Notes: generated by a model not told the origin, from the letters alone. A stretch of DNA of 64,000 nt from an uncultured Candidatus Saccharibacteria bacterium (GCA_964565195.1 CAZMCQ010000003.1:24080-88079); one strand, 5' to 3'; positions 15,048-28,821 are shown, counted from the stretch's first letter. A program made the numbers and translations.

Positions 15048-15452
15048 ATGTCTAAGAAGCGCGTTTTGGTTTTCGGCACGTTTGATATTTTGCATCCCGG
15101 GCATATTGATTTTTTGCGCCAGGCCAAGCGTTATGGCGATTTTTTGATTGTCTCTCTGGCTCGCGAGAAAAATGTCAAGCGCGTCAAAGGGCAAAAACCA
15201 TTTCATTCTGAAACTGACAGAAAAAAACTCCTTGAGTCTCTGAAATTCGTCGACAAAGTGGTGATGGGGTCTAAAGATAACTATTTGGGGCATATCAAAT
15301 CCCTCAAGCCGGATGTGATTGTTTTGGGCTACGACCAGAAAGCCTACACCAAAGATTTGAAAGCGAAACTGGCCGGATTGGGATTGAGTCCGAGGATAGT
15401 TCGCGCGCAGTCTTATAAATCTAAAATATATCGATCGAGGAATTATCGATGA
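15048..15452 (+). CDS. Cytidylyltransferase-like nucleotidyltransferase, probable FMN adenylyltransferase (RibL-like)
   Basis: HxGH motif FDILHPGH; sits directly upstream of riboflavin kinase. Confidence 0.5.
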   Translation: MSKKRVLVFGTFDILHPGHIDFLRQAKRYGDFLIVSLAREKNVKRVKGQKPFHSETDRKKLLESLKFVDKVVMGSKDNYLGHIKSLKPDVIVLGYDQKAYTKDLKAKLAGLGLSPRIVRAQSYKSKIYRSRNYR

Positions 15453-15799
15453 TAGTTGCGAAAGGCCTGGTGGAGAAGAGTTTGGGTCGGGGCAGAAAGC
15501 TCGGGTTCCCGACGGCGAATATTGCACTCGGGGATGCCGTCGTTGAGGACGGAATTTACATTGGCTTTGCGAATAAAATGCCTGCTTTGATTTTTGTCGG
15601 CGCGGCAGAGACCTTTGGCGAGAGAGAGCGCCGGATCGAAGCGCACCTTTTGGATTTTGACGGGGACTTATACGGACAGGAAATTGAGGTAGAGTTAAAG
15701 CAAAAAATCAGAGAGAGTAGAAAGTTTGAGACTCAAGAAGAATTAGTAGCCCAGATGAAAAAGGACGAACAAGTCGCCCGAAAATATTTTTCAACCTGA
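15449..15799 (+). CDS. Riboflavin kinase (stand-alone RibF C-terminal-type domain)
   Basis: GRGRKLGFPTAN motif. Confidence 0.7.
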   Translation: MIVAKGLVEKSLGRGRKLGFPTANIALGDAVVEDGIYIGFANKMPALIFVGAAETFGERERRIEAHLLDFDGDLYGQEIEVELKQKIRESRKFETQEELVAQMKKDEQVARKYFST

Positions 15800-16384
15800 A
15801 TGTTTACTGGAATTATCAAGACAGTAGCCAAAGTTAAAAAAGCTGAGTTTACTGGAGGCTCGCTTTTTTTAACTGTTGAAAAACCGAAACCCTGGAAAAT
15901 AAAGCCCGGAGATTCCATAGCTACTGATGGCGCCTGCCTAACAGTAAAGAAAGTTGGCAGCGGTGATTTTACTGTGGAATTGATGCCGGAGACCCTAAGC
16001 AAAACTGTTTTTGGAAAAAAATCGCCACACAGAGTAAACCTCGAGCAATCTCTGAAATTAACTGATTTACTTGACGGGCATTTGGTCATGGGTCACGTGG
16101 ATACAGTCGGCAAAATTAGTCAGGTGGAGAGGCGCGGCGCCTCAAAAGTTTACACAATGCAATTTCCAAGACAATTCAGCAAACTGATTGTTTCTAAAGG
16201 GGCAATTGCAGTGGATGGGATAAGCTTGACTATTGTTGATGCGGGCAAGGGCTGGTTTACAGTTTCACTCGTGGATCATACAATAAAGAACACCACCCTC
16301 GGCGAGAAGAGCCCGGGGGAGATGGTAAATATTGAATTTGATATTTTGGCTAAATATTTAAATCGAATATGGCGCAAACAGTAA
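15800..16384 (+). CDS. ribE: Riboflavin synthase
   Basis: MFTGII N-terminus and internal duplicated lumazine-binding halves. Confidence 0.8.
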   Translation: MFTGIIKTVAKVKKAEFTGGSLFLTVEKPKPWKIKPGDSIATDGACLTVKKVGSGDFTVELMPETLSKTVFGKKSPHRVNLEQSLKLTDLLDGHLVMGHVDTVGKISQVERRGASKVYTMQFPRQFSKLIVSKGAIAVDGISLTIVDAGKGWFTVSLVDHTIKNTTLGEKSPGEMVNIEFDILAKYLNRIWRKQ

Positions 16385-16833
16385 TTAAAGGTAATTTTGA
16401 GAGATTTGACGCATCAGAGTTTAAAGTGGGGCTGGTGGCAGCGCAGTTTAATAAAGATATAACCGAAGGGTTGCTGGAAAGTGCGATAGGAATTCTTGAT
16501 CAATATGCCGTGCCAAAATCAAGCATTGCAATTTATAGAGTCGCGGGAAGTATTGAGATACCGGTTATTTTGCAGAGTTTGGCAAAAACAAAACAATATG
16601 ATTGCCTTTTGGCTATTGGCGCGGTAATTAGGGGCCAAACGCCCCATTTCGATTACGTGGCAAAGATCGTTTCCGAAGGTGTTTTGCGTGTTATGCTGGA
16701 TAATAGTATCCCGGTTGGATTTGGTGTATTAACTTGTGATAATCATGAGCAGGCCAGAGCGCGGATTCATGTCGGTGGCGAAGCTGCCGAAGCCGCTCTG
16801 CAAAGCGCTAAACTCATTGATGAAAGAGGATGA
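16369..16833 (+). CDS. ribH: 6,7-dimethyl-8-ribityllumazine synthase
   Basis: KVGLVAAQFN...ITEGLL... lumazine synthase fold signature. Confidence 0.8.
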   Translation: MAQTVIKGNFERFDASEFKVGLVAAQFNKDITEGLLESAIGILDQYAVPKSSIAIYRVAGSIEIPVILQSLAKTKQYDCLLAIGAVIRGQTPHFDYVAKIVSEGVLRVMLDNSIPVGFGVLTCDNHEQARARIHVGGEAAEAALQSAKLIDERG

Positions 16834-17734: not shown

Positions 17735-18664
17735 ATGAATCAATACAAAACCGGGCCGTGGCTCGTGGTAGTAGCGGCCATGCTCTGGGCCGTGGACGCG
17801 CCGTTTCGCAAATTTTTAACTGCCGATTTGCGCTCGACGACCATCGTTTTAATGGAGCACCTCGTTATCGCCGTGCTGGTCGTTATATTTTTGTTCCGCT
17901 ATCTGCCGGAACTTCGGAAACTCCGGCACTTCGAATGGTGGGCCGTGGTTTTCATCGGTCTGGGCGGATCGGCGCTGGCCACCGTGATGTTCACGCAGAG
18001 TTTCCATTACCTTAATCCCTCGGTCGCGATTCTGCTACAAAAGGTCCAGCCGTTTATCGCGATTCTGCTGGCGGTGTGGCTGCTGCGCGAGAAACTCGGC
18101 AAAACATTTTGGCTTTGGGCTCTGCTTGGCGTGTTTGGCGCTTACCTTGTGAGTTTTCCGGATTTCAAGATTGGCAGTGTCGCGGGGTCGCCGAATGCTT
18201 TAGGTGTGTTGCTGGCCCTCGGCGCCGCGTTTTTCTGGGGCGGCTCGACAGTCATGGGACGGGTGGTGCTCTCCCGCGTAAGCTTCCAGGCCATGACCGC
18301 CGTGCGGTTTTTGTCCGCCCTGCTCTTTTTGGTGCTGATTGAGCTTTTTACCGGACGGATCAGTGAGGTGGCTGGCGCGTCGCCAAAAGACTGGCTCTAT
18401 GTTCTGATCATCGCGGTTGTGGCGGGTTTTGTTTCGCTGTTTATCTATTATCGCGGGTTGACTCATACCAAAGCCAGCGTTGCCACCCTCGGCGAACTGG
18501 CTTTTCCGGTAGCCGCCGTGATCGTGAACTGGAAATTCCTGGGTGCGGCGCTGGAACCCACGCAAATCGTCGGGGGCCTGATTCTGCTTGCGGCCACGAT
18601 TGGGCTGTCGTATTTTAATGCGGCTTCTTCCTGGGAATACGAGGCCAAAGAAATACCGGTATGA
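17735..18664 (+). CDS. DMT/EamA family transporter
   Basis: Two EamA-like repeats; 10 TM. Confidence 0.55.
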   Translation: MNQYKTGPWLVVVAAMLWAVDAPFRKFLTADLRSTTIVLMEHLVIAVLVVIFLFRYLPELRKLRHFEWWAVVFIGLGGSALATVMFTQSFHYLNPSVAILLQKVQPFIAILLAVWLLREKLGKTFWLWALLGVFGAYLVSFPDFKIGSVAGSPNALGVLLALGAAFFWGGSTVMGRVVLSRVSFQAMTAVRFLSALLFLVLIELFTGRISEVAGASPKDWLYVLIIAVVAGFVSLFIYYRGLTHTKASVATLGELAFPVAAVIVNWKFLGAALEPTQIVGGLILLAATIGLSYFNAASSWEYEAKEIPV

Positions 18665-20019
18665 AAAAGAATTTGCGGCGGTTTTGGAAACTAGGCCGCG
18701 AGGAATTTAACACCCAATTTTTCGACATCACCAAAAAAGGCGAGCTCATGGTCAAGGAGGGCAATTATCAATATAACCTCCTTGAACTAGTCAAAAAATA
18801 CGGCTCAACCCTCGAGATCGTCTTCCCGTTTATTATTGAGACGCGGGTGCGCAACTTGATCGACATCTTCAACGCGTACATTAAGCTCAATGATTATAAG
18901 GGGAAGTTTTTTTATCACTACCCGATGAAGGTGAACCAGAACAAGGAGTTTGTTCTGCCGCTCATTTCCGAGGGCGCCAATCTCGAGACTTCTTCGGCGA
19001 ACGAGCTTTGGATTGTGAAACGGCTCTGGGAGCAGGAGAAATTCAATGCCAAAATTCGGGTTTTGTGCAACGGCCCGAAAACGCAAAAATATCTAAGTCT
19101 CATCGAGGAGCTTGACCGCAAAGGGGTGATCATTACGCCGATTATCGAGGAATGGCAGGAGATGGAATTTTTCCGTAGATACAAAGGCGAGGTGGGCATC
19201 CGCGTGGATCTGGATGTGAAGGTCAAATCGCATTGGGACAAGCGGTTCAACCATTTCGGTTTTCCCGAGGAAGAGCTCCTCAAAATGGGCAAGATCCGCA
19301 ATCTGGGAATTTTAAGCTACCACATCTCGAGCCAGATCGAGAAGATTGAAGGGCTGACCGCGCCGATCAAGCGGGCCGTGGCGCTTTACGCAAAGCTGCG
19401 CCTGAAAAATCCGCAGCTTGATACCATCAATATTGGCGGCGGCGCCGGCGTGCCGTATGAGAAGCGGCCTTTTTACACCGGCAAGGCGGCGGCGCATTTC
19501 ATTGTCCGTACCTTCAAGCAGGTCTGCCGGAAATTGGATGTCAAAGAGCCGAATATCATCTGCGAATGGGGGCGCTGGGCCGTGGCGCCGGCGCAGATTT
19601 CAATTTTTAAAGTGCTTTCCCAGAAAGACGTGGAAAATGGCCATACCAAGAAGTGGTACATCGTGGATGGCAGTTTTATGAATGATTTAGCAGACACCTG
19701 GGCCATCCATCAGAGATGGCACATCGTGCCAGTTAATGATATGGCGAGTCGGCGCCTGCAGAAAGTTTGGCTCACCGGCTCCTCCTGCGACAGCGATGAT
19801 AAATACACGGCGGGCGGTGGGTATATTTTATTGCCAAAGATTGAGGAGGGCTATGACCAATACATTGCCATTTTCGATACCGGCGCATATCAGGATTCCC
19901 TGGCTTCGCATCACTGCCTCTTATCGAGTCCGGCGAAGATCATCGCCCAGGATGGCGACATCACCATTGCGCGCAAGCGCGAAACCGCAGAGGAAATCGG
20001 CAAACAATTCGGGTGGTAA
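18661..20019 (+). CDS. Type III (alanine-racemase-fold) PLP-dependent decarboxylase, Orn/Arg/DAP decarboxylase family
   Basis: PLP-Lys motif YPMKVNQN, GGGxG loop INIGGGAG, HISSQ and EWGRW motifs. Confidence 0.6.
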   Translation: MKKNLRRFWKLGREEFNTQFFDITKKGELMVKEGNYQYNLLELVKKYGSTLEIVFPFIIETRVRNLIDIFNAYIKLNDYKGKFFYHYPMKVNQNKEFVLPLISEGANLETSSANELWIVKRLWEQEKFNAKIRVLCNGPKTQKYLSLIEELDRKGVIITPIIEEWQEMEFFRRYKGEVGIRVDLDVKVKSHWDKRFNHFGFPEEELLKMGKIRNLGILSYHISSQIEKIEGLTAPIKRAVALYAKLRLKNPQLDTINIGGGAGVPYEKRPFYTGKAAAHFIVRTFKQVCRKLDVKEPNIICEWGRWAVAPAQISIFKVLSQKDVENGHTKKWYIVDGSFMNDLADTWAIHQRWHIVPVNDMASRRLQKVWLTGSSCDSDDKYTAGGGYILLPKIEEGYDQYIAIFDTGAYQDSLASHHCLLSSPAKIIAQDGDITIARKRETAEEIGKQFGW

Positions 20020-20031
20020 AATTTTTTCGAC

Positions 20032-21000
20032 ATGAACGTCAAATTTTTCACCGAGCTTGACAGGAAAAGTGTTCTGGAGGCCGGGGGCAAGGGGGCCTCG
20101 CTTGGGGAGATGACCAGCGCCAAAATTCCCGTGCCGCCGGGGTTTGTGGTTTTGGCCGCGGCTTTTGACCGCTTCCTCGCAGAAACCGATTTAGATTCGG
20201 AAGTCGAAGCGATTTTAAAAAAAGTCAACGCCAAAGACGTGAACTCTGTAGATAAAGCCTCGGCCGAGATCCGGGATTTGATCCACCGCGAGCAGATGCC
20301 CAAAGATTTGCAAAAAGAAATTGTCGCGGCTTATGATATTTTATTCCCCTCCCTTGAGGGGAGGGGCAAGGGGAGGGTGAAAGGACTTGTTGCGGTCCGC
20401 TCGTCAGCCACTGCCGAGGATTCCAAAGTCGCCTCCTGGGCAGGGGAACTGGAGACTTATCTGAATGTTCAGGAAAAAGGTTTAATCCGCGCGGTAATGA
20501 AGTGCTGGTCCTCGCTTTTTACGCCGCGCGCGATTTTTTACCGCTTTGAGAAGAAACTGCACCGCAAGCCGGTTTCTGTCGCGGTGGTGGTGCAGGAAAT
20601 GGTTCAGTCCGAGATTTCCGGCGTTGCTTTCACCGTGCACCCGGTTACAAAAGACTACAATCAAATGGTGATTGAGGCCGGGTTTGGTCTGGGGGAAGCG
20701 ATCGTTTCCGGCCAGATCACGCCAGATACCTACGTTGTGCACAAAAACGATTTTTCGATTCTCGATATAAATGTTTCAGAGCAGAAGATGGCAATTGTCA
20801 GAAGCGCTGGCGGCGATATTCACAAGAACCTGTCTGTAAAAGTAGGCAGCAAACAAAAACTCACGGGCAAGCAGATTGTGACACTCGCGAAAATCTGCAA
20901 AGGCATTGAAAAACACTACAAACACCCGCAAGACATAGAATGGGCCTATGTGAAGGGCAAATTCTACATCACTCAATCCCGCCCGATAACGACTTTATGA
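20032..21000 (+). CDS. Stand-alone PEP synthase / pyruvate phosphate dikinase N-terminal ATP-binding domain (PPDK_N) protein, with in-frame family A insertion
   Basis: GGKGASLGEM ... VAVRSSATAEDS ... ends exactly at the PPDK_N domain boundary (ITQSRPITTL); insertion FPSLEGRGKGRV from palindrome at 20343..20385. Confidence 0.7.
   Translation: MNVKFFTELDRKSVLEAGGKGASLGEMTSAKIPVPPGFVVLAAAFDRFLAETDLDSEVEAILKKVNAKDVNSVDKASAEIRDLIHREQMPKDLQKEIVAAYDILFPSLEGRGKGRVKGLVAVRSSATAEDSKVASWAGELETYLNVQEKGLIRAVMKCWSSLFTPRAIFYRFEKKLHRKPVSVAVVVQEMVQSEISGVAFTVHPVTKDYNQMVIEAGFGLGEAIVSGQITPDTYVVHKNDFSILDINVSEQKMAIVRSAGGDIHKNLSVKVGSKQKLTGKQIVTLAKICKGIEKHYKHPQDIEWAYVKGKFYITQSRPITTL
20343..20385. repeat. GC-rich palindromic element, family A copy 4, in-frame inside PPDK_N gene
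   Basis: cccctccc-ttga-ggggaggg plus caaggggagggtg. Confidence 0.65.
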
Positions 21001-21457
21001 AAACTTACGTGTTCATTGACGCATCAAATCTCTTTTACGGAGGCGAAATGTCCTTCTACTCACAATTCAAGGTCGATCTCGGAGACCCGAACCGCTACCG
21101 GACCTTAGGTGAGCTGGTAGCAGCCGTCTACCGGCAAATTTACTATTACAACAACGAGCGAATCCACACCAAATTAAAAATGCCGCCCAAGCTTTATGCC
21201 GAGCGACATCAATTAACAACTAATCCCGTATCCGTTAGACTGTAGACAAGATGTCTAAAGAACGGGGAGCAGGCCAGTTAGTGCTATCGGGCGATGGTGA
21301 TTTTTTGCCGGTGTTGAAACACTTAAAAGATCAGGGTAAACAAGTTATACTCCTTGCAAGAGGCCCGCGAACGGCAAAGGAGATAAGACAGTTTGCAGGA
21401 CCCAATTTCAGGGATTTTGAATACCTGAAATTCCTTCTGAAAATGGATGACATATAA
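20997..21457 (+). pseudogene. Decayed NYN-domain gene with an embedded transposase (rve-family) C-terminal tail fragment
   Basis: MKTYVFIDASNLFYGG (NYN N-motif) ... LGELVAAVYRQIYYYNNERIHTKLKMPPKLYAER (integrase-core tail) ... stop ... LVLSGDGDFLPVLKHLKDQGKQVILLA (NYN C-motif) in a second ORF. Confidence 0.45.
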
Positions 21458-21536
21458 AACGAAGCGGACTCGTATAGAATCCGCTTCACGTTTAGTACTT
21501 ATAGCGTATACTAAAGCTGCTAAATTTGTCAAATGG

Positions 21537-21599
21537 CCTATGCCAAGGGTAAATTCTATATCATCCAATCAAGGCCAATCACGACATTGAAGTAATATT
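21537..21599 (+). pseudogene. Diverged duplicate of the PPDK_N gene 3' end (MAYAKGKFYIIQSRPITTLK*)
   Basis: ~75% nt identity to 20941..21000; encodes the same terminal peptide. Confidence 0.4.
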
Positions 21600-21656
21600 C
21601 ATATTTTCCAATTCTATGGAATTGGATACCAAATTTTACCAAATTATGGCTTTGAA

Positions 21657-22730
21657 ATGAGGATTAAATACGAATTATATTGGGAGGATATTGGTGAAAG
21701 AGTAATTTACGCAGAATTGGACGATTATGCTTGGAAACTACCCGAAAAAGTATTTAGATATAGAAAAAAGAATTCTCTATATATTTATCATCATGGAAAA
21801 ATGGCCGCATTTTATTCCAAGGATGATTCCCGGATAGAGGCAGCGATTGGAAGAAAATTTTTTAGTAAATCGATCAATGCGGCAAAAGTCGGTAAGCTCC
21901 AGGTAAGGAGTTTTAATAAAGTTAGAAACTATCAAAAAAAGATAAAACATGAAGAGATTATCAAACTTTTCGATAAAAATTTGAAACAAATGATATTTAA
22001 AACCCTCAATCTTTATCGTGAGGCCTTAAGCGTCCACTATTTAACCCAACCCCAATTTTTTGAAGGATTTAATGCTAGGGATTCAGAACGTTATTCTCAA
22101 ATTCTAAAAAAGCTTGCAGGAAATAGATTCACGTATACGAGAATTGCCTGGACATCTGCTTTTCAGCTAGCCAAATTTTTGCTAAGAGAGTATAGCAAAA
22201 GAATGAAGATAGGTCTTGAACAAGCTGAAAGCCTTTTATATAGAGAGCTTGCACAAAATAAAATTACGAAGAAACAACTAATAAAACGAGCTAAAGCATT
22301 TGTTTTAATTTCCAAAAATCATAGATTTAAACTTTATACGGGCAAGACAGTCCAAAAATATATTGATAAATATGAAAATTATCGCAATATTAGCTCGGTG
22401 AAGGGTATTATAGGCAACAAGAGAGGCAGAGTAAGGGGGAAAGCCTTTGTGGTTAGTAATGAAAATTTAGATCTTAACAAATTACCTAGGGGGATGAAAA
22501 AGGGTATGATTTTGATTGTTCAAAACGCGTGGCCCGAATTTGCTAAATATTACAAACTTGCCTCCGCAATTATTACAAACGAGGGTGGAATTACCTCACA
22601 CGGAGTGGTTGTTTCTCGAGAGTTCGGAATTCCCTGCATCGTTGGCACTAAAATTGCCACCAAAGTCTTCAAGGACGGGGATCTGGTCGAGGTGGATGCG
22701 AACAGGGGGATTGTCAAAAAAATAAACTAG
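21657..22730 (+). CDS. Protein with Lys-rich uncharacterised N-domain and C-terminal PEP-utilising-enzyme mobile (swivel His) domain, paralog P1
   Basis: C-terminus GGITSHGVVVSREFGIPCIVG...DGDLVEVDANRG matches PEP-utilizers phospho-His domain; strongly AT-rich. Confidence 0.6.
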   Translation: MRIKYELYWEDIGERVIYAELDDYAWKLPEKVFRYRKKNSLYIYHHGKMAAFYSKDDSRIEAAIGRKFFSKSINAAKVGKLQVRSFNKVRNYQKKIKHEEIIKLFDKNLKQMIFKTLNLYREALSVHYLTQPQFFEGFNARDSERYSQILKKLAGNRFTYTRIAWTSAFQLAKFLLREYSKRMKIGLEQAESLLYRELAQNKITKKQLIKRAKAFVLISKNHRFKLYTGKTVQKYIDKYENYRNISSVKGIIGNKRGRVRGKAFVVSNENLDLNKLPRGMKKGMILIVQNAWPEFAKYYKLASAIITNEGGITSHGVVVSREFGIPCIVGTKIATKVFKDGDLVEVDANRGIVKKIN

Positions 22731-23336
22731 ATGATCAAGTTAATCATCATTGATTTCTACGGGGTGATGACTTGCGGAAGTTATAAAGAAACTTGTCAGT
22801 GGATAGCGAAGAAATATAAGTTGGATTATCGATTCGTTTATAAAATTGTTTATCATAAATATTTTGGGCAAGCAGCGCTAGATAAAATCACCGAGCGCGA
22901 GTCCTTTGAGCTGCCAGCCAGAGAGCTGGGCCTGAAAGAAAGTTGGCGGGAGTTGCTGGTAAAGCACACATCCTTTCAGAAACTTCGTTTATCTGTTTTT
23001 AATCTTGCCAGAGATTTGCAAAAACAGGGTTATCTGATCCTGCTGCTCTCGAAGAATACCAGGGGGCAATTTGATTATGCCTTACGAAAAATGAATATCA
23101 GGCGTTATTTTAAAAATATCATCAACACGCTGGATTTGAAATTACCAAAGGCCTCGACCAAAACCATCAGATACGTGCTGAAAAAATTTCGCGTCAAACC
23201 CTCAGAAACCATAATGGTTGATGATCAAGATTTTAATCTGACTGAACCGGCCAAGCTCGGCGTGCACACCATCCTTTATAAAAATCCTCGACAATTAAAA
23301 ACGGGCCTCCGCAAGGGCCTTTACAATAAAGTTTAG
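22731..23336 (+). CDS. HAD-like hydrolase (variant motif I DFYG)
   Basis: IIDFYGVMT motif I variant, MVDDQDFN motif IV. Confidence 0.5.
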   Translation: MIKLIIIDFYGVMTCGSYKETCQWIAKKYKLDYRFVYKIVYHKYFGQAALDKITERESFELPARELGLKESWRELLVKHTSFQKLRLSVFNLARDLQKQGYLILLLSKNTRGQFDYALRKMNIRRYFKNIINTLDLKLPKASTKTIRYVLKKFRVKPSETIMVDDQDFNLTEPAKLGVHTILYKNPRQLKTGLRKGLYNKV

Positions 23337-24037
23337 ACGCCTGTTATGCTCGCGTGTTTGCCGCGTAAGTATTTCTGGAAATGCTGCCACTTCTTTTTAT
23401 CTAAGTTCCAATGCTCTGCGTCTTCAGCATACCATTTGAGCAGATTCGCCGCTTCCGGAGTTATAAGTTTATATTTCAGAGCATAGTTGTTGATATCATA
23501 AATATCGCCAAAGGATTGGAATTTAACCTTCATGTCTTTGACAAACTTTATGCACTCCCGCCCGCTTCTTCCGCAGTTGGTGCGGGACAATGGCACGATC
23601 ACCCAGTTGACCTTGAGGCCCGCTGTTCTTATATTTTTGATGAATTTCTTTTTTGCTACCCCATGACCTAAGGCGTCATCTACCAGCAGAGCTGCCATAC
23701 CTTTACGGTAATTTCCCTCAACCGCAAGGCTTAAGCCTCCGGGTTTTGGTTCCTTGCGTACATAGCCAAAGGGTTTATTTAGCGCCATACCCAGAGCAGT
23801 AGCCAGAGGAATACCGGCTGTTACTCCACCTAGAATCACGTCAAATTTGATTTTCTTAGATTTGATAAACTTGACAATCTCACTTACTATCATGCGCATT
23901 CGCCTTGGATCGCCAAGGGTTTTGCGCATATCCGGATAAATTGGACAGATGCGATTGCTTGTGGTAACTTTCGGGCCAATTTCAAAGAAAAATGGAGTGG
24001 TGGCAAAAGCCTTAATGATTTTCTGACTTTTGAGCAT
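23333..24037 (-). CDS. Orotate phosphoribosyltransferase-like type I PRTase (second paralog)
   Basis: ICPIYPDMR and PRPP loop ALLVDDALGHG. Confidence 0.55.
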   Translation of the reverse strand: MLKSQKIIKAFATTPFFFEIGPKVTTSNRICPIYPDMRKTLGDPRRMRMIVSEIVKFIKSKKIKFDVILGGVTAGIPLATALGMALNKPFGYVRKEPKPGGLSLAVEGNYRKGMAALLVDDALGHGVAKKKFIKNIRTAGLKVNWVIVPLSRTNCGRSGRECIKFVKDMKVKFQSFGDIYDINNYALKYKLITPEAANLLKWYAEDAEHWNLDKKKWQHFQKYLRGKHASITGV

Positions 24038-24082
24038 AAGATTATTCTAGCATTTTGGTAATAAAAAAACAGGCCTGAAACC

Positions 24083-24133
24083 TGGAAAAATTGGGAGTAG
24101 AAGGCGAGCCACAGAGGGTCTTCGCCTTCTACT
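24083..24133 (-). terminator. Intrinsic terminator for minus-strand histidine-phosphatase gene
   Basis: gtagaaggcgag...cttcgccttctac 12-bp stem; T-run on minus strand (A-run 24085-24090 on +). Confidence 0.5.
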
Positions 24134-24146
24134 AAAAAGCTTTGGA

Positions 24147-24755
24147 CTACTGCCGGCCGAGGTTGCCGAGGTATCGCAAGTCGCTCCATCTATCCTCAAC
24201 AAAATCGAGTATTCCAACAGCCCCTGGCTCAAATGGGGACATAGCGTGCCACTTAGAGTGGATAAGCCAGGCTATCGAGACCTCGATCCGCGAGCCGCCG
24301 TGGCTCGCTATGCCGATAGTTTTCCCTTGGTGGGAGCGGACAAAATAGTCAATCTCACGTCCCCCTTCCTCCCCGCGGCAGGTATTCGTCCCGCAGATCC
24401 ATTGCTCGTTGGATCTAAGGATCTGTTCTTCGACACTGACCCCAGCGGTTTTGGCATCGGCGCGTAGTTTCTCGAGTACGCCCGGAGTGAAGGGGTATAG
24501 ACCCAGTGTGGCATCGCCGATTACGTCATTCGTGTAGAGCGGGGCGATGAACCCCATCCCGAGCATGTTGTAATGCAGGGTCTGGATGGCTCGGCCCTTT
24601 GGGGAAGAAAATGCGACGTCGATCTTGTGGCCCATTTCCTTGAGCTTCTGGCCCGAGCGAATGCAACGTTCGATCGAGGCTAGCGGCAATGCGTCCATCG
24701 GTACTTCTTCGCCTTCCCGAGATTCATGCCGGAAAATCAGCACAGTAGTTTTCAT
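24147..24755 (-). CDS. Histidine phosphatase family (phosphoglycerate-mutase-like) protein
   Basis: N-terminal RHE(S)...E catalytic-His motif, internal IASHGG. Confidence 0.55.
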   Translation of the reverse strand: MKTTVLIFRHESREGEEVPMDALPLASIERCIRSGQKLKEMGHKIDVAFSSPKGRAIQTLHYNMLGMGFIAPLYTNDVIGDATLGLYPFTPGVLEKLRADAKTAGVSVEEQILRSNEQWICGTNTCRGEEGGREIDYFVRSHQGKTIGIASHGGSRIEVSIAWLIHSKWHAMSPFEPGAVGILDFVEDRWSDLRYLGNLGRQ

Positions 24756-24867
24756 TGAACCCTCCTTGGTTCATGTAGTTTTTTGGTTTTAGATTATAAA
24801 AAGAACGAAGGTATATGTTAGCAGATTTGCGCTGTTTTGTCAACAGTGACTATAATTAAGCTAAATT

Positions 24868-26316
24868 ATGCCAAAAAATAAGCCTGAAAAAGACCTTTGG
24901 ATGGTGGCAGCGGAAATACCTCAAGACACAGTTTTTATGATGAGTGGGGCTCTTAAATTTATGATTCAGTCGTGGCCCACAATTGGTTTAGGCGGCAAAG
25001 TCTCCAAGTATTTCAGTCTGTTTGAAGGTGATTTTTGCAGGATGTATTATCTGCGTACCGAATTCGACGCCCAAGCCGCATTTTTGGCCGACAAGATGAT
25101 TAGTGATCCAGACTGGGCGCTGGGGTTTATCAAAAAAGTGGAAAACTGGTCTGCCAACTTCTTCAAAGAATCAAAACGATTCAGGAAACTTAACTTTTCT
25201 CAACTAGATAACCAGCAGATGATACGAGAGTATCAGAAACCCCTCAAATATCATGTCCTCTCCCACGGCAATGGGTCATCTGTTTCTTGGCATGCGGATG
25301 CAGACAAACAGAAGGTGACCAAAGCAATGCTCAAGACCCTTCAGTGTACCCCCGAGCAATTTAGCACCCTTTCAACGCCGTACAGAGGGAGCTTGGTAAG
25401 GGATGAGGAAAAGGACATCTTGAGACTAGCGATAATAAAGGATAAACAAAAGTTGATTGCACATGCCAAAAAGTATGAGTGGTTAAACTACCAATACAAA
25501 GGACCAGCCTACGATTTTTCTTACTTTGACGAGAGATTTAAGGCATTACTGAAAGGTAAAAATGATTTTGCTCCCGATAAACTTCTTGAAAAAATATTGC
25601 AGGCAGAAAAAGCTTTGATTCCAAAACAGCAAAAACTTATCACGAGCCTGAAATTTAGCCGGCATCAGGTTAAACTAATCAGGCTGGCCCAGGCGCTGGT
25701 TTTTATAAAAGATTATCGTAAGGATGCGCTTTATCATGGTATGTATAGCTATGAGCCGTTTTTCCGAGAAGTAGGCCGACGCTTGGGTTTGAGTCTGGAC
25801 CAAGTAAGAGCGTTTAACTATTGGGAGGTAGGTCCGGCATTGTTGAAAGGTGCATTTGATCCTAATGAACTTAATCAAAGATTGAAATTCTGTGTTGCGT
25901 GGGTTGATAAGAAAAATTACATTGTGTACACGGGGGAAAAAGCCAGAGAAATTTTGAGCAAGATTAGTTTCGAGAAATTAAAGACAAGAGGTATCGAAGA
26001 ACTAATCGGAATGTGCGCCTGTCCGGGGGTAGTTAAAGGGATTGTGAAGATAGTTAATATTCCAGAAGATATGGAAAAGATGGAAACAGGCAATGTCCTT
26101 GTTGCACACAACACTAATCCCAATCTCGTTCCAGCCATGAAAATGGCAGCCGCGATAATTTCGGAAGCGGGGGGATTGACCTGTCACTCGGCCATCGTAG
26201 CCCGTGAATTTCAGATTCCATGTGTCGTGGGTGTACCTGGTGCAGACAAGATTTTGAGAGATGGGGATTTGGTAAAAGTTGATGCGACCAAAGGGATTAT
26301 TAAAAAACTAAAGTGA
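24868..26316 (+). CDS. Uncharacterised ~380-aa N-domain + C-terminal PEP-utilising swivel-His domain, paralog P2
   Basis: C-terminus GGLTCHSAIVAREFQIPCVVG...DGDLVKVDATKG. Confidence 0.6.
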   Translation: MPKNKPEKDLWMVAAEIPQDTVFMMSGALKFMIQSWPTIGLGGKVSKYFSLFEGDFCRMYYLRTEFDAQAAFLADKMISDPDWALGFIKKVENWSANFFKESKRFRKLNFSQLDNQQMIREYQKPLKYHVLSHGNGSSVSWHADADKQKVTKAMLKTLQCTPEQFSTLSTPYRGSLVRDEEKDILRLAIIKDKQKLIAHAKKYEWLNYQYKGPAYDFSYFDERFKALLKGKNDFAPDKLLEKILQAEKALIPKQQKLITSLKFSRHQVKLIRLAQALVFIKDYRKDALYHGMYSYEPFFREVGRRLGLSLDQVRAFNYWEVGPALLKGAFDPNELNQRLKFCVAWVDKKNYIVYTGEKAREILSKISFEKLKTRGIEELIGMCACPGVVKGIVKIVNIPEDMEKMETGNVLVAHNTNPNLVPAMKMAAAIISEAGGLTCHSAIVAREFQIPCVVGVPGADKILRDGDLVKVDATKGIIKKLK

Positions 26317-27800
26317 AACCTAAATATCTTCACGACAATGATCCTTGGATGCTCGCGGAAGATATCCCGGATATCGATTTTCAGTTTTCTCAAATTTGGC
26401 TCTCTTCTTTTGTCAACGATTTAGAAAAAACAGTTGGGCGGAATTACAAGAAAATTCTCTGTGTTTATAAAGGTCTAAACCTGAAATTTTATTATGGAGA
26501 GAAAGATTCTGACAACTTTGCCAAACACGTCCTCGGGCTGATTTTGAACAATCCGGATTTCGGTGTAAAAATAAATAAACAAATTCGAGTTTATTCAGAT
26601 CGGCTCAAAGGAAATTCCAGAATTATTACTCAGGACTTTTTGCGAAGTCTGTCAAATCAAGATTTAGCTAGCTTTTATCATGAACTAGATGCGCTTCATA
26701 CTGAACTCTATACTTGGGGTTGGCTACCCAATGCCGTCGACATGTTCCATGGAAACTTTACAAATCATCTGAAACGCCTTCTCCGGGCGAAGATTACAGA
26801 AGATCTGGTTAACGAAACGCTGGTAGCGCTATCCACGCATCCCGAAAAAAGCATTATTCAGCAAGAGCACCAGTCCTTTTTGGGTCTGGTCGTCATGAAG
26901 CAATCGAGAGCCCCCAAAGAAGCGTTCAAAGAAGCATTCAAAGCCCACTTGGATAAATATTTTTATCTCAAACACCTTTGGATTGGCAAAGATGGAGTCT
27001 ACGACGAACAGTATTATTTGGATGAAGTCAAAAAGTTTAAGACTTCGGCGAGGGAGCTTTTGGTAAAAGAAAACCAGGCTTTCCGGCAGACTTTGAGCAA
27101 GAGGATGAAACTATTATCAAAATTAAAATTCGTCCAAAAAGAAAAACAAATTTTGGATGTCTATGCAGAATTCGCTATTACCAAAATGTACCGGCGAGAT
27201 GCCCAAATTTTTTGGGCATACAAAATGGATTTTGTGTTTAGTGAACTATCGCGAAGACTGAAAATTCCTTTTGTGCAAACTCGTTTCATGTTTCCGCATG
27301 AAGTAATTTCTGCCCTGAAGGCGGGCTGGCTTGCACCTAACTTGAAAAAAGAATTGAAAGAAAGGGTTAAATACTGCGTTTATTATGCAGTGAAGGACCG
27401 GGATTATTTATTTATAACAAAAGCGGCAAAGGAATTGGAGGCTCAAATCAAACAAAATCTGGACGAGAATGTAAATGAATTAGTTGGGCAAACGGCTTGC
27501 CTGGGGAAGGCAAAGGGCGTGGCCAAAATAGTGAACTCACCCTTTGACATGCGAAAAATGAACAAAGGGGATATTCTCGTAAGTATCGCTACCAACCCAG
27601 ATATTGTGCCAGCCATGAAAAAAGCTGCGGCGATTGTGACAGAACAGGGCGGCATCACAAGCCACGCGGCCATTGTCTCACGAGAGCTGGGAATTCCTTG
27701 TGTCATCGGTACGAAAATCGCCACCAAAGTTTTTAAAGACGGTGATTTGGTCGAGGTGGATGCGAATAAAGGAACAGTGAGGAAAATTTCTAATTTCTAA
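26313..27800 (+). CDS. Uncharacterised ~395-aa N-domain + C-terminal PEP-utilising swivel-His domain, paralog P3
   Basis: N-terminus parallels P2 (DPWMLAEDIPD); C-terminus GGITSHAAIVSRELGIPCVIGTKIATKVFKDGDLVEVDAN nearly identical to P1. Confidence 0.6.
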   Translation: MKPKYLHDNDPWMLAEDIPDIDFQFSQIWLSSFVNDLEKTVGRNYKKILCVYKGLNLKFYYGEKDSDNFAKHVLGLILNNPDFGVKINKQIRVYSDRLKGNSRIITQDFLRSLSNQDLASFYHELDALHTELYTWGWLPNAVDMFHGNFTNHLKRLLRAKITEDLVNETLVALSTHPEKSIIQQEHQSFLGLVVMKQSRAPKEAFKEAFKAHLDKYFYLKHLWIGKDGVYDEQYYLDEVKKFKTSARELLVKENQAFRQTLSKRMKLLSKLKFVQKEKQILDVYAEFAITKMYRRDAQIFWAYKMDFVFSELSRRLKIPFVQTRFMFPHEVISALKAGWLAPNLKKELKERVKYCVYYAVKDRDYLFITKAAKELEAQIKQNLDENVNELVGQTACLGKAKGVAKIVNSPFDMRKMNKGDILVSIATNPDIVPAMKKAAAIVTEQGGITSHAAIVSRELGIPCVIGTKIATKVFKDGDLVEVDANKGTVRKISNF

Positions 27801-27842: not shown

Positions 27843-28118
27843 ATGAAGACTCAAATCATTATAAAGACGGATAGAGAGGTCAAGAAAACTGCGCAGAAAC
27901 TCGCCAAAGAATTGGGCCTGCCTTTAAGCACGCTGATTAATGCTTATTTGAGGGAATTTGTCAGAAGCCAAAAAATAACCATTTCGATGGAGCCTGAATT
28001 AAAGCCCGAGATCGGACGCCTTCTGAAAAAAGCCAGTGAAGATTTTAAAAAGGGACGGAACGTTTCTCCTGTTTTTGATAATACTAAGGAAATGCTGGAA
28101 TATTTGCATTCGCAATAA
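27843..28118 (+). CDS. Type II antitoxin candidate (RelB/DinJ-like)
   Basis: 91-aa protein directly upstream of, and 1-nt overlapping, a RelE/YafQ-family toxin gene. Confidence 0.5.
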   Translation: MKTQIIIKTDREVKKTAQKLAKELGLPLSTLINAYLREFVRSQKITISMEPELKPEIGRLLKKASEDFKKGRNVSPVFDNTKEMLEYLHSQ

Positions 28119-28375
28119 TGCAAATTGTTTTACACAAAAGATTTAAACGGCGATATAAAAAACTCCGGGCCTTGCAAAAGCAAATTGATGAAAGGCTTTT
28201 TTTATTTGCGCACAATCCATTTCATCCGATTTTAAACAATCACGCACTGATTGGCAAGTATAAGAATTATCGTAGTATTAACATTACTGGTGATTATCGA
28301 GCTCTCTATGAACCGATTGCCAGAAATAAGGCGTTTTTTGTCATAGTAGATACCCACAGCAATTTGTATAAATGA
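28118..28375 (+). CDS. RelE/YafQ/ParE-superfamily mRNA-interferase toxin
   Basis: C-terminal ITGDYRALYE...FFVIVDTHSNLY signature. Confidence 0.65.
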   Translation: MQIVLHKRFKRRYKKLRALQKQIDERLFLFAHNPFHPILNNHALIGKYKNYRSINITGDYRALYEPIARNKAFFVIVDTHSNLYK

Positions 28376-28821
28376 AAATCGTCATTGACACCAATGTTTT
28401 AATCAATGGCGCTGCGGATGAGCAGTCCGTGGCTTTTAAGATTGTCAAGGAGGTGATCGAGGGTCGCATTGAGGCATATGCTACGCACCAGACCATGAGT
28501 GAAAACCGGCAGATGCTGCGCAAGCTTGTCCGCGACCCCGAGTACCGCGAGCTTCTGGAAGAGTATTTTCGCAACCTGCAAATTGTGAAAGTTTTTCAGG
28601 CGCTAAATGTGGTGGCTGACCCCGAGGACAACAAATTGTTCGAATCCGCCGCTTCTTCCGGCGCGGAGTATTTGATTTCCAATGACAAAGAAGTCCTTGC
28701 TGTCGAACAGTATCACAACACCAAGATCGTCCCGCCGGACGAGTTCTGGGCGACCTATAAAAACGAAACCGACGACGGCTCGGCGTGGAATGACTGGGCG
28801 AAGATGCTGATGGGAAAGTAG
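28372..28821 (+). CDS. PIN-domain nuclease (PIN_3-like TA toxin component)
   Basis: IVIDTNVLI N-terminus, internal acidic residues, ISNDKEVL; ATGA overlap with upstream toxin gene. Confidence 0.65.
   Translation: MKIVIDTNVLINGAADEQSVAFKIVKEVIEGRIEAYATHQTMSENRQMLRKLVRDPEYRELLEEYFRNLQIVKVFQALNVVADPEDNKLFESAASSGAEYLISNDKEVLAVEQYHNTKIVPPDEFWATYKNETDDGSAWNDWAKMLMGK

Follow-up and report, generated by a model that had tools for sequence, protein, structure and literature searches.

A proposed split, RPH-like phosphotransfer system in Candidatus Saccharibacteria: one ATP-grasp subunit, several swivel-histidine partners and an array-forming family in CPR bacteria and DPANN archaea

A 64-kb stretch of DNA from an uncultured Candidatus Saccharibacteria bacterium (GCA_964565195.1, CAZMCQ010000003.1:24080-88079; hereafter the window) carries four open reading frames (ORFs; 20032-21000, 21657-22730, 24868-26316 and 26313-27800) that divide the domains of a swivel-histidine phosphotransfer enzyme among them. 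We consider it probable (roughly 70%) that this locus is a hub-and-spoke version of a two-component small-molecule dikinase resembling rifampin phosphotransferase (RPH), in which one ATP-grasp protein would serve three partner proteins (P1, P2 and P3). The four genes are intact and keep the ATP-grasp residues and the swivel histidines, and their relatives are organised as one PPDK_N (ATP-grasp) domain to many swivels. A six-frame motif scan and tblastn searches, both covering the whole window, count exactly three swivel histidine motifs, a single PPDK_N gene and a short relic of another; the 64 kb holds no other swivel or PPDK_N motif. None of the four proteins has a Pfam match to the TIM-barrel domain PEP-utilizers_C (PF02896), and the best tblastn match to a TIM-barrel relic in the window, from five phosphoenolpyruvate (PEP) synthase C-terminal domains, reached an E-value of only about 0.1. 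Hidden remnants of ppsA are rejected because the window has neither such a relic nor additional motifs of the two domains.

The first of the four genes (20032-21000, + strand) encodes a stand-alone ATP-grasp subunit of 322 aa, in which Pfam recognises PPDK_N (PF01326, E 2.4e-100; 3-311 of 328 profile positions) and no other domain. Residues 6-322 align with residues 8-316 of the RPH of Listeria (RPH-Lm), both stopping at the 'SRPITTL' boundary, and the end of the protein is also that of the crystallised RPH ATP-grasp construct 5hv6, so the original prediction of a gene reduced to this domain and closing at its boundary holds. The equivalents of RPH K22, R117 and T136, whose roles are taken from PMC4844700, are kept within GGKG, VRSSATAED and ETYLN. 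All of the 120 best relatives are likewise stand-alone proteins of 310-350 aa, 69-78% identical to the window protein. Truncation by the transposase and NYN fragments that follow the gene can be set aside given these orthologs and the relic copy, which also ends one codon past RPITTL and thereby marks the domain-boundary stop as native rather than a product of insertion. We propose, by analogy with characterised systems, that this protein acts as a shared 'charger' that would pyrophosphorylate the swivel histidine of its partners. Upstream, a pyridoxal phosphate (PLP)-dependent decarboxylase of the arginine/diaminopimelate decarboxylase fold (452 aa, 18661-20019, +; under all equivalog cutoffs) ends 12 nt ahead of the PPDK_N start, a spacing at which the two genes may be co-transcribed; it was not seen beside PPDK_N in the other loci inspected.

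The three partner genes each encode an N-terminal domain followed by a complete swivel (PEP-utilizers) domain and lack the TIM barrel, an arrangement that had been read from the sequence beforehand and that Pfam and tblastn on the window confirm. P1 (21657-22730, +; 357 aa) is a short-form acceptor subunit with a reduced helical N-domain and the swivel at residues 281-351 (E 4.9e-21; His315). P2 (24868-26316, +; 482 aa) and P3 (26313-27800, +; 495 aa), whose stop and start overlap by 4 nt, are long-form acceptor subunits with the swivel at residues 406-476 (PF00391, E 3.1e-25; His440) and 417-487 (E 5.9e-27; His451), respectively, and P3 carries a predicted RPH-like binding domain. The swivel motif previously quoted for all three is exact in P2 and P3, while P1 departs from it at one position (TSHGVVVSRE, with Val for Ala).

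Each partner has a family of its own. About 40 orthologs of P1, roughly 355-380 aa long, are 44-61% identical over 97-100% of its length, which excludes the idea that P1 is a 5'-truncated gene beside insertion debris; its closest relative outside its own genome comes from a Nanoarchaeota metagenome-assembled genome (MAG; 61% identity). The full-length orthologs of P2 are 488-493 aa long and 50-53% identical to it, with a further one in the array L005 whose N-domain is 39% identical, and its N-domain shares about 25% identity with that of P3 over 392 aa. P3 belongs to a family of >6,000 matches, the closest of which are about 495 aa long, 50-67% identical and spread over Doudnabacteria, Falkowbacteria, Paceibacterota, Buchananbacteria and others; judged from these comparisons it is the most conserved, or 'core', module type. 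The only long DNA repeat among the paralogs is the swivel-coding region, at 61-72% identity, suggesting that the paralogs are old and excluding recent gene conversion between them. The NCBI models of P1 (317 aa, tagged 'partial'; HY398_01585) and P3 (352 aa; HY398_01560) are shorter than the ortholog-supported ORFs, and public annotation appears to use late start codons for both. The window itself matches a MAG assigned to Candidatus Doudnabacteria.

Structure prediction links the N-domains to RPH, as had been suggested from domain order. AlphaFold models were made for P1 and P3, the latter with 45 family members as input. The P3 model is confident (pLDDT 92.5, pTM 0.90), and each of its six best Foldseek matches in the PDB is a structure of RPH-Lm (E 7e-15 to 6e-12), with TM scores of 0.52-0.56 for the best four over about 550-600 columns; the matches that follow cover the swivel only, at a TM score of about 0.2. 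The P3 family profile aligns with RPH-Lm 641-866, placing two invariant residues of the family motif F..TK.YRRDAQ, K291 and R295, opposite R666 and K670, which together with E667 form the catalytic 'block 9' that serves the second phosphotransfer in RPH and persists in distant clades (PMC4844700). Similarly, a 'KDYRK' in P2, 159 residues before the histidine, resembles the 'REYPK' of RPH block 9. The P1 model is also confident (pLDDT 93.7) and has its secondary-structure elements in the order of P3, minus about 130 residues of central helices. By hhalign the relation between P1 and P3 begins only at P1 residue 172, so sequence homology of its first ~170 residues to P3 is rejected and only the order of elements is parallel there. 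The lost central helices and the limits of the hhalign match lead us to class P1 as a short-form module and P2 and P3 as long-form modules; the models thus show a predicted RPH-like fold for P3 and, in part, for P1.

In the mechanism we propose, the 322-aa protein would bind ATP and pass the beta,gamma-pyrophosphoryl group to the swivel histidine of P1, P2 or P3 with release of AMP, and the gamma-phosphate would then leave as inorganic phosphate (Pi). The swivel would swing back to the RPH-type binding domain at the N-terminus of its own protein and hand the phosphate to an acceptor held there, so that the net reaction would convert ATP and acceptor into AMP, Pi and acceptor-phosphate. The dikinase chemistry is proposed from the precedents of PpsAB, HpeHI and RPH, and charging of all paralogs in trans by one subunit would have its precedent in HpeHI, CreHI and PpsAB (PMC12167813); the acceptors are presumably small molecules. 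With N-domains that have almost no sequence relationship to one another, P1, P2 and P3 would each be expected to phosphorylate an acceptor of its own.

The organisation of relatives is consistent with one ATP-grasp domain working with several modules, as the original prediction had supposed for the window. A hidden Markov model (HMM) survey of all fetched loci, covering roughly 20 kb around each, showed that at least 15 of them hold arrays of 5-10 paralogs, and stand-alone PPDK_N genes (about 270-345 aa) never exceeded one per locus. For example, L001 has ten PEP-utilizers genes in a row on a 1.19-Mb contig, of which one array covers about 15 kb, L002 has at least eight together with one 315-aa PPDK_N gene and a 201-aa haloacid dehalogenase (HAD)-superfamily gene, and L005 has seven together with an APH-type kinase, a His_Phos_1 phosphatase and an aminotransferase. 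In other relatives the parts are fused. P0049 and P0070 (815-819 aa) join PPDK_N to a P3-type module, reproducing in one chain the RPH domain order that the window spreads over separate ORFs. The largest fusion, a 3,761-aa protein in a Woesearchaeota MAG (L030, 6212-17497, +), has one N-terminal PPDK_N followed by eight PEP-utilizers domains, and a 2,019-aa protein from Nanoarchaeota (L044, 5565-11624, +) has one PPDK_N and four swivels, while three shorter proteins each pair one PPDK_N with two swivels (L018, 384-4319, 1,311 aa; L043, 8402-12103, 1,233 aa; L038, 1740-5204, 1,154 aa). All five are single uninterrupted ORFs; that of L030 is confirmed by both Pfam and an independent ORF caller, and that of L044 by Pfam. 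Within the fusions, modules come in two size classes, about 340-367 aa and about 465-513 aa, corresponding to P1 and to P2/P3, and the short modules precede the long ones in L030 and L044. A census of the 149 best cluster representatives for P2 found exactly one PPDK_N with 1-6 swivels in 26, 2-3 swivels without PPDK_N in 37, and two PPDK_N domains in none. We regard these fusions, as sequence evidence, as the strongest non-experimental indication that one ATP-grasp domain may serve several modules; together with the 5-10-paralog arrays, single-PPDK_N fusions of 2-8 modules support the earlier suggestion of several binding modules sharing one partner.

The binding modules themselves are highly diverse. 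When 128 paralogs from 23 array loci were clustered by N-domain at 35% identity or more, they fell into 106 clusters, of which 92 were singletons and the P3 type was the largest. Paralogs residing in the same locus have a median identity of 57% in the swivel and about 28% in the N-domain, near the alignment noise floor, a pattern of conserved swivels and divergent N-domains that fits a shared docking partner and different acceptors. A smaller unit recurs beneath this diversity. On long contigs, a swivel gene directly follows the PPDK_N gene in all three independent contexts, with a partner of about 500 aa and an adjoining HAD gene in two of the three; the partner in L087, the only one compared by sequence, is P3-type (42% identity, full length), and the L087 HAD protein is 64% identical to that of the window. 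From these contexts, a PPDK_N, P3-type and HAD core recurs, and the arrays look like its expansions.

Scanned with the P3 alignment, species-representative genomes showed the family in many lineages of the ultra-small CPR (candidate phyla radiation) bacteria and, among the likewise ultra-small DPANN archaea, in Nanoarchaeia, Micrarchaeota, Woesearchaeota, Iainarchaeum and Aenigmatarchaeota. Typical arrays also occur in MAGs labelled with other taxa (L053, L007, L052, L009, L037, L038, L019 and L031; Planctomycetota, Methylomirabilota, Methanosarcinales, Bdellovibrionales and Gammaproteobacteria), mostly automated bins, which could be mis-binned CPR/DPANN contigs or could reflect a wider distribution of the system. 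PPDK_N and P3-type genes sit among core genes (ribosomal proteins, EF-Ts, RF-1), and this setting, together with the housekeeping-level conservation of PPDK_N (69-78%) and of the P3 type (50-67% among its closest relatives), favours a core role. Our best guess is therefore that the handling or capture of metabolites is a core function of the system in host-dependent cells, rather than rifamycin resistance; a dikinase spends two phosphoanhydride bonds, which would suit the capture of scarce substrates at high affinity.

By domain content and fold, the system can be assigned to the class of two-component RPH-like dikinases, departing from it in stoichiometry, module size classes, megaproteins and CPR/DPANN distribution. 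The 387-aa chain 9goj, which is probably HpeI, matches the window PPDK_N protein (E 3e-46), and only the swivel parts match the PRK08296 models, which we take to represent the PpsA-like family (75-95 bits against a cutoff of 578 bits). In HpeHI, the ATP-grasp subunit HpeI works with HpeH, which consists of an RPH-type binding domain and a swivel, and phosphorylation proceeds via the swivel histidine; both subunits are required in HpeHI-type systems, PpsAB has been shown to be a dikinase, and HpeHI has a submicromolar Km and is described as a scavenging system (PMC12167813). The likeness to HpeHI, CreHI and PpsAB thus lies in a separate ATP-grasp subunit and a second subunit with an RPH-type binding domain and a C-terminal swivel histidine. 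However, each of those systems pairs one subunit of about 40 kDa with one of about 70 kDa in the aromatic catabolism of free-living bacteria, whereas the window has one ATP-grasp gene and three partners of 357-495 aa, its relatives have 5-10 genes or 2-8 fused modules, and the multi-module fusions have no counterpart among them. The split architecture was already known (HpeHI, CreHI and PpsAB; PMC12167813), while the one-to-many organisation appears to be new. In the openly searchable literature, subscription-only literature being outside the scope, we found no account of the arrays, of an organisation of one PPDK_N to many modules, or of CPR/DPANN megaproteins with several swivels, and a CPR resistome survey merely counts rph-like matches (PMC8651080). 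The system is very widespread in CPR and DPANN and apparently undescribed.

Comparison with single-chain members of the superfamily separates the system from each of them. RPH-Lm (PDB 5fbs, 5hv1) has the same three domains in the same order as the fused P0049 and P0070, is the only solved structure that matches the P3 N-domain, and shares the ATP-grasp residues and, by alignment of the P3 family, two basic block-9 residues. In contrast to RPH, the window domains are split across genes, the binding-domain identity is about 15% and Glu667 is not kept. Against the RPH models NF041857 and NF000283, with a cutoff of 999, PPDK_N scores 273 bits, P1-P3 score 47-65 (P3 61) and P0049 scores 355. Being split, far under the curated cutoffs and without the block-9 Glu, the system is not RPH. 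PEP synthase (PDB 8a8e, 9dae, 2ols) of the archaeal type is the closest in sequence for both ATP-grasp (E 1.9e-67) and swivel (E 2.4e-27), its swivel being nearly identical to GGxTSHAAIVSRELGIPCV; the window proteins differ in lacking the TIM barrel and in having an RPH-type helical domain ahead of the swivel. The PPDK_N and GGxT[SC]H swivel elements of TIGR01418 are present on separate polypeptides, and the best score is 320 bits against a cutoff of 739.75. Without a PEP/pyruvate-binding TIM barrel, the canonical pyruvate-to-PEP route is impossible and the system is not a PEP synthase, so the earlier preference for small-molecule phosphorylation over gluconeogenesis stands in that respect, while nothing found is specific to rifamycins or other antibiotics. 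The prodiginine ligases PigC and RedH belong to the same superfamily and have the same domain order, with P3 231-490 aligning to PigC 613-880 (NF052631, E 2.4e-19), but they are single polypeptides of biosynthetic clusters that carry out ATP-dependent condensation, and the window proteins score far under their cutoffs.

Several observations weigh against a shared-charger dikinase at this locus. Charging of P1 and P2 by this particular PPDK_N protein is a step that we infer, and the relic upstream of P1 indicates that the locus once had two ATP-grasp genes, making a past 1:1 pairing for P1 possible. In L001, L005, L014, L027 and other loci, the roughly 20 kb retrieved contain no PPDK_N. Although two basic residues of block 9 are retained, the P3 family has Met or Ile in place of the RPH catalytic Glu667, with Tyr at the Y668 position. 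In 24 of 124 paralogs, compared with 32 in shuffled controls, a strict [KR]x[YFWH]x[KR] motif lies 130-185 residues before the histidine, and a general presence of block 9 across paralogs, beyond the P2 and P3 types, is accordingly not supported. The HAD protein encoded next to P1 lacks the Asp+2 that serves as the general acid typical of HAD phosphatases, leaving a simple kinase/phosphatase cycle uncertain. The window instance is also small (one plus three genes) and lies in a rearranged, possibly acquired region.

Among other explanations, the one that survives best, though we think it unlikely, is that the system is a battery for inactivating antibiotics or xenobiotics, each paralog neutralising a different host or competitor toxin and the N-domain diversity reflecting an arms race. 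The N-domain has no structural relative other than RPH, the 106 N-domain clusters among 128 paralogs are extremely diverse, an APH-type kinase lies within one array, CPR rph-like matches have been listed as resistance-like genes (PMC8651080), and the archaeal affinity of P1 (61%) suggests horizontal mobility. However, distant clades of the RPH family keep phosphotransferase activity and not rifampin specificity (Stogios et al., PMC4844700), PPDK_N and the P3 type show housekeeping-level conservation among core genes, and the scores are far under the RPH family cutoffs (273 versus 999). Given the hyper-diversity of modules other than the P3 type, a detoxification role is conceivable.

Somewhat less plausible still is a role in biosynthesis, in which intermediates would be phosphorylated for condensation or elimination, as by PigC/RedH-like enzymes, or before carboxylation, as by PpsAB/HpeHI-like enzymes, with neighbouring enzymes performing the next steps. 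The alignment of P3 with PigC described above would fit such a role, as would the HAD, aminotransferase, 2-hydroxyacid dehydrogenase and methyltransferase genes interleaved in the loci and the PLP decarboxylase 12 nt upstream of PPDK_N, and in the Hpe pathway phosphorylation precedes carboxylation and dephosphorylation (PMC12167813). Yet no accessory gene except the HAD gene recurs across arrays, and the scores are far under the PigC/RedH cutoffs. Moreover, CPR and DPANN organisms generally have little biosynthetic capacity.

A regulatory or protein-directed phosphorelay, in which the swivel proteins would phosphorylate other proteins, as enzyme I of the phosphotransferase system (PTS) phosphorylates HPr, or act as PEP synthase (PPS)-like regulators, is improbable. 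The swivel domain is common to PTS enzyme I, a PPS-like protein is reported to act as a regulator in Haloferax (PMC10948481), and the Thr of GGxT[SC]H, whose regulatory role is described in PMC12167813, is kept. On the other hand, the gene tables of the arrays inspected contain no HPr-like or EIIA-like genes, and the N-domain matches the RPH ligand-binding domain, not the HPr-binding domain of enzyme I. Least credible is the alternative raised by the original prediction itself, that the four ORFs are functionless pieces of a full-length ppsA or rph broken by frameshifts or insertion sequences (IS): although the stretch separating the PPDK_N gene from P1 holds IS3 and NYN fragments and a 20-codon PPDK_N relic, the 20-28 kb segment is lower in GC (0.41-0.45) than its flanks and the shorter NCBI model of P1 is tagged 'partial', every ORF is full length relative to many same-size orthologs of all four proteins, the relic shares its stop one codon past RPITTL, the window has no TIM-barrel relic and many CPR and DPANN genomes carry the genes in this split form, and we reject this alternative on the ortholog lengths.

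Extending the RPH-like dikinase interpretation beyond the window, we tentatively suggest, as a possibility well short of an expectation, that CPR and DPANN share a lineage-typical 'phosphorylation hub'. One charger would serve up to about ten interchangeable modules, in tandem or as a megaprotein (up to eight), each irreversibly phosphorylating a different metabolite; the result would be ATP-driven, high-affinity capture of host-scavenged compounds, an analogue of PTS trapping, exchanged between two domains of life and occupying >1% of a roughly 1-Mb genome. CPR and DPANN make up a large share of microbial diversity, with tiny genomes, host dependence and little biosynthesis, and some devote 15-20 kb to this system, whose ATP-grasp subunit is among the better-conserved CPR/DPANN proteins. 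If one charger does serve many modules, this would add a new principle of organisation to the PEP-synthase/RPH superfamily, and would probably be key to understanding how small molecules are acquired, activated or neutralised in these cells. The system is experimentally tractable, with soluble proteins, a known catalytic histidine and a known HpeHI assay. Automated labels such as 'PEP synthase', 'pyruvate, water dikinase' and 'rph' mislead inferences on gluconeogenesis and resistomes in these organisms.

The PPDK_N gene and P1 are separated by 656 nt of debris (20997-21595, counting the overlap with PPDK_N), which the original prediction had passed over. A NYN gene on the + strand, whose start overlaps the PPDK_N stop (ATGA), is represented by its N-terminal 17 codons from 20997 and by a C-terminal part at about 21275-21457 in another frame; joined, the fragments match PF01936 (E 8.5e-9). 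What separates the two parts is the 3' end of a transposase gene of the IS3 family (last ~65 codons, about 21048-21245, +; rve_2, E 1e-6), corresponding to positions 319-364 of 369 in NF033516. A strong hairpin with a 13-bp stem follows the NYN remnant on its 3' side (21459-21489), and a scan for promoters and terminators gave nothing informative besides it. The relic itself is the 3' end of a second PPDK_N gene (20 codons, 'MAYAKGKFYIIQSRPITTLK*'; 21530-21595, +), found by tblastn as a match to PPDK_N residues 303-322 (80% identity, E 2.5e-5) about 60 nt upstream of P1. Its DNA has diverged from 20940-21000, which rules out a fresh duplication; the debris may have arisen through deletion of a second PPDK_N-P1 pair or through insertion with duplication.

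Between P1 and P2 lie three further genes, two of which had been described as interleaved phosphatases. The HAD-superfamily protein (201 aa, 22731-23336, +), which begins right after the P1 stop, is well supported (PF00702, E 8.9e-13) and has orthologs inside or beside the arrays L002, L014, L019 and L087 (42-64% identity). Its motif I is DxYG, not DxDx[TV], with D8, Y10 and G11 invariant in the three orthologs examined (the window protein, L087:9330-9944 and L002:13579-14184), and its motif IV is DD; the DxYG pattern is that of 2-haloacid dehalogenases rather than canonical HAD phosphatases. The second, a probable histidine-phosphatase-superfamily protein (202 aa, 24147-24755, - strand), matches His_Phos_1 weakly and under the Pfam cutoff (E 7.6e-4, 19.6 bits versus 21.7), with the signatures 'FRHESREGE' and 'ASHGGSR' readable in its sequence, and members of this superfamily also occur in the arrays L005, L038, L049 and L053. 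Among 148 neighbouring ORFs clustered from 24 loci, the only recurrent accessory genes were the 201-aa HAD (four loci) and an RHG-type phosphatase (three loci), and a conserved accessory gene set in the arrays is rejected apart from these two. The phosphatase association is therefore looser than had been implied. The third gene, missing from the original prediction, encodes an orotate phosphoribosyltransferase (PRTase)-like protein (234 aa, 23333-24037, -; PF00156, E 4.1e-8; NF001729, E 6e-25, under the curated cutoff); its link to the system is uncertain, and among the other arrays of the same ORF set it formed no recurrent orthogroup.

The GC content of the 20-28 kb segment contrasts with 0.48-0.55 in the flanks. 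Right after P3, a small DUF6364-like ORF, a YafQ/ParE-like toxin ORF (E 1.4e-6, just under cutoff) and a PIN_3 protein (E 9e-16) form a predicted toxin-antitoxin cluster (27843-28821, +). The low GC, the archaeal relative of P1, the IS debris and the adjoining toxin-antitoxin genes suggest that the region was horizontally acquired or recombined, possibly across domains. Farther upstream, at 15048-16833 (+), translations read by eye only point to a set of riboflavin-related genes comprising an FAD-synthetase-like cytidylyltransferase fragment, a riboflavin-kinase-like ORF, riboflavin synthase and lumazine synthase.

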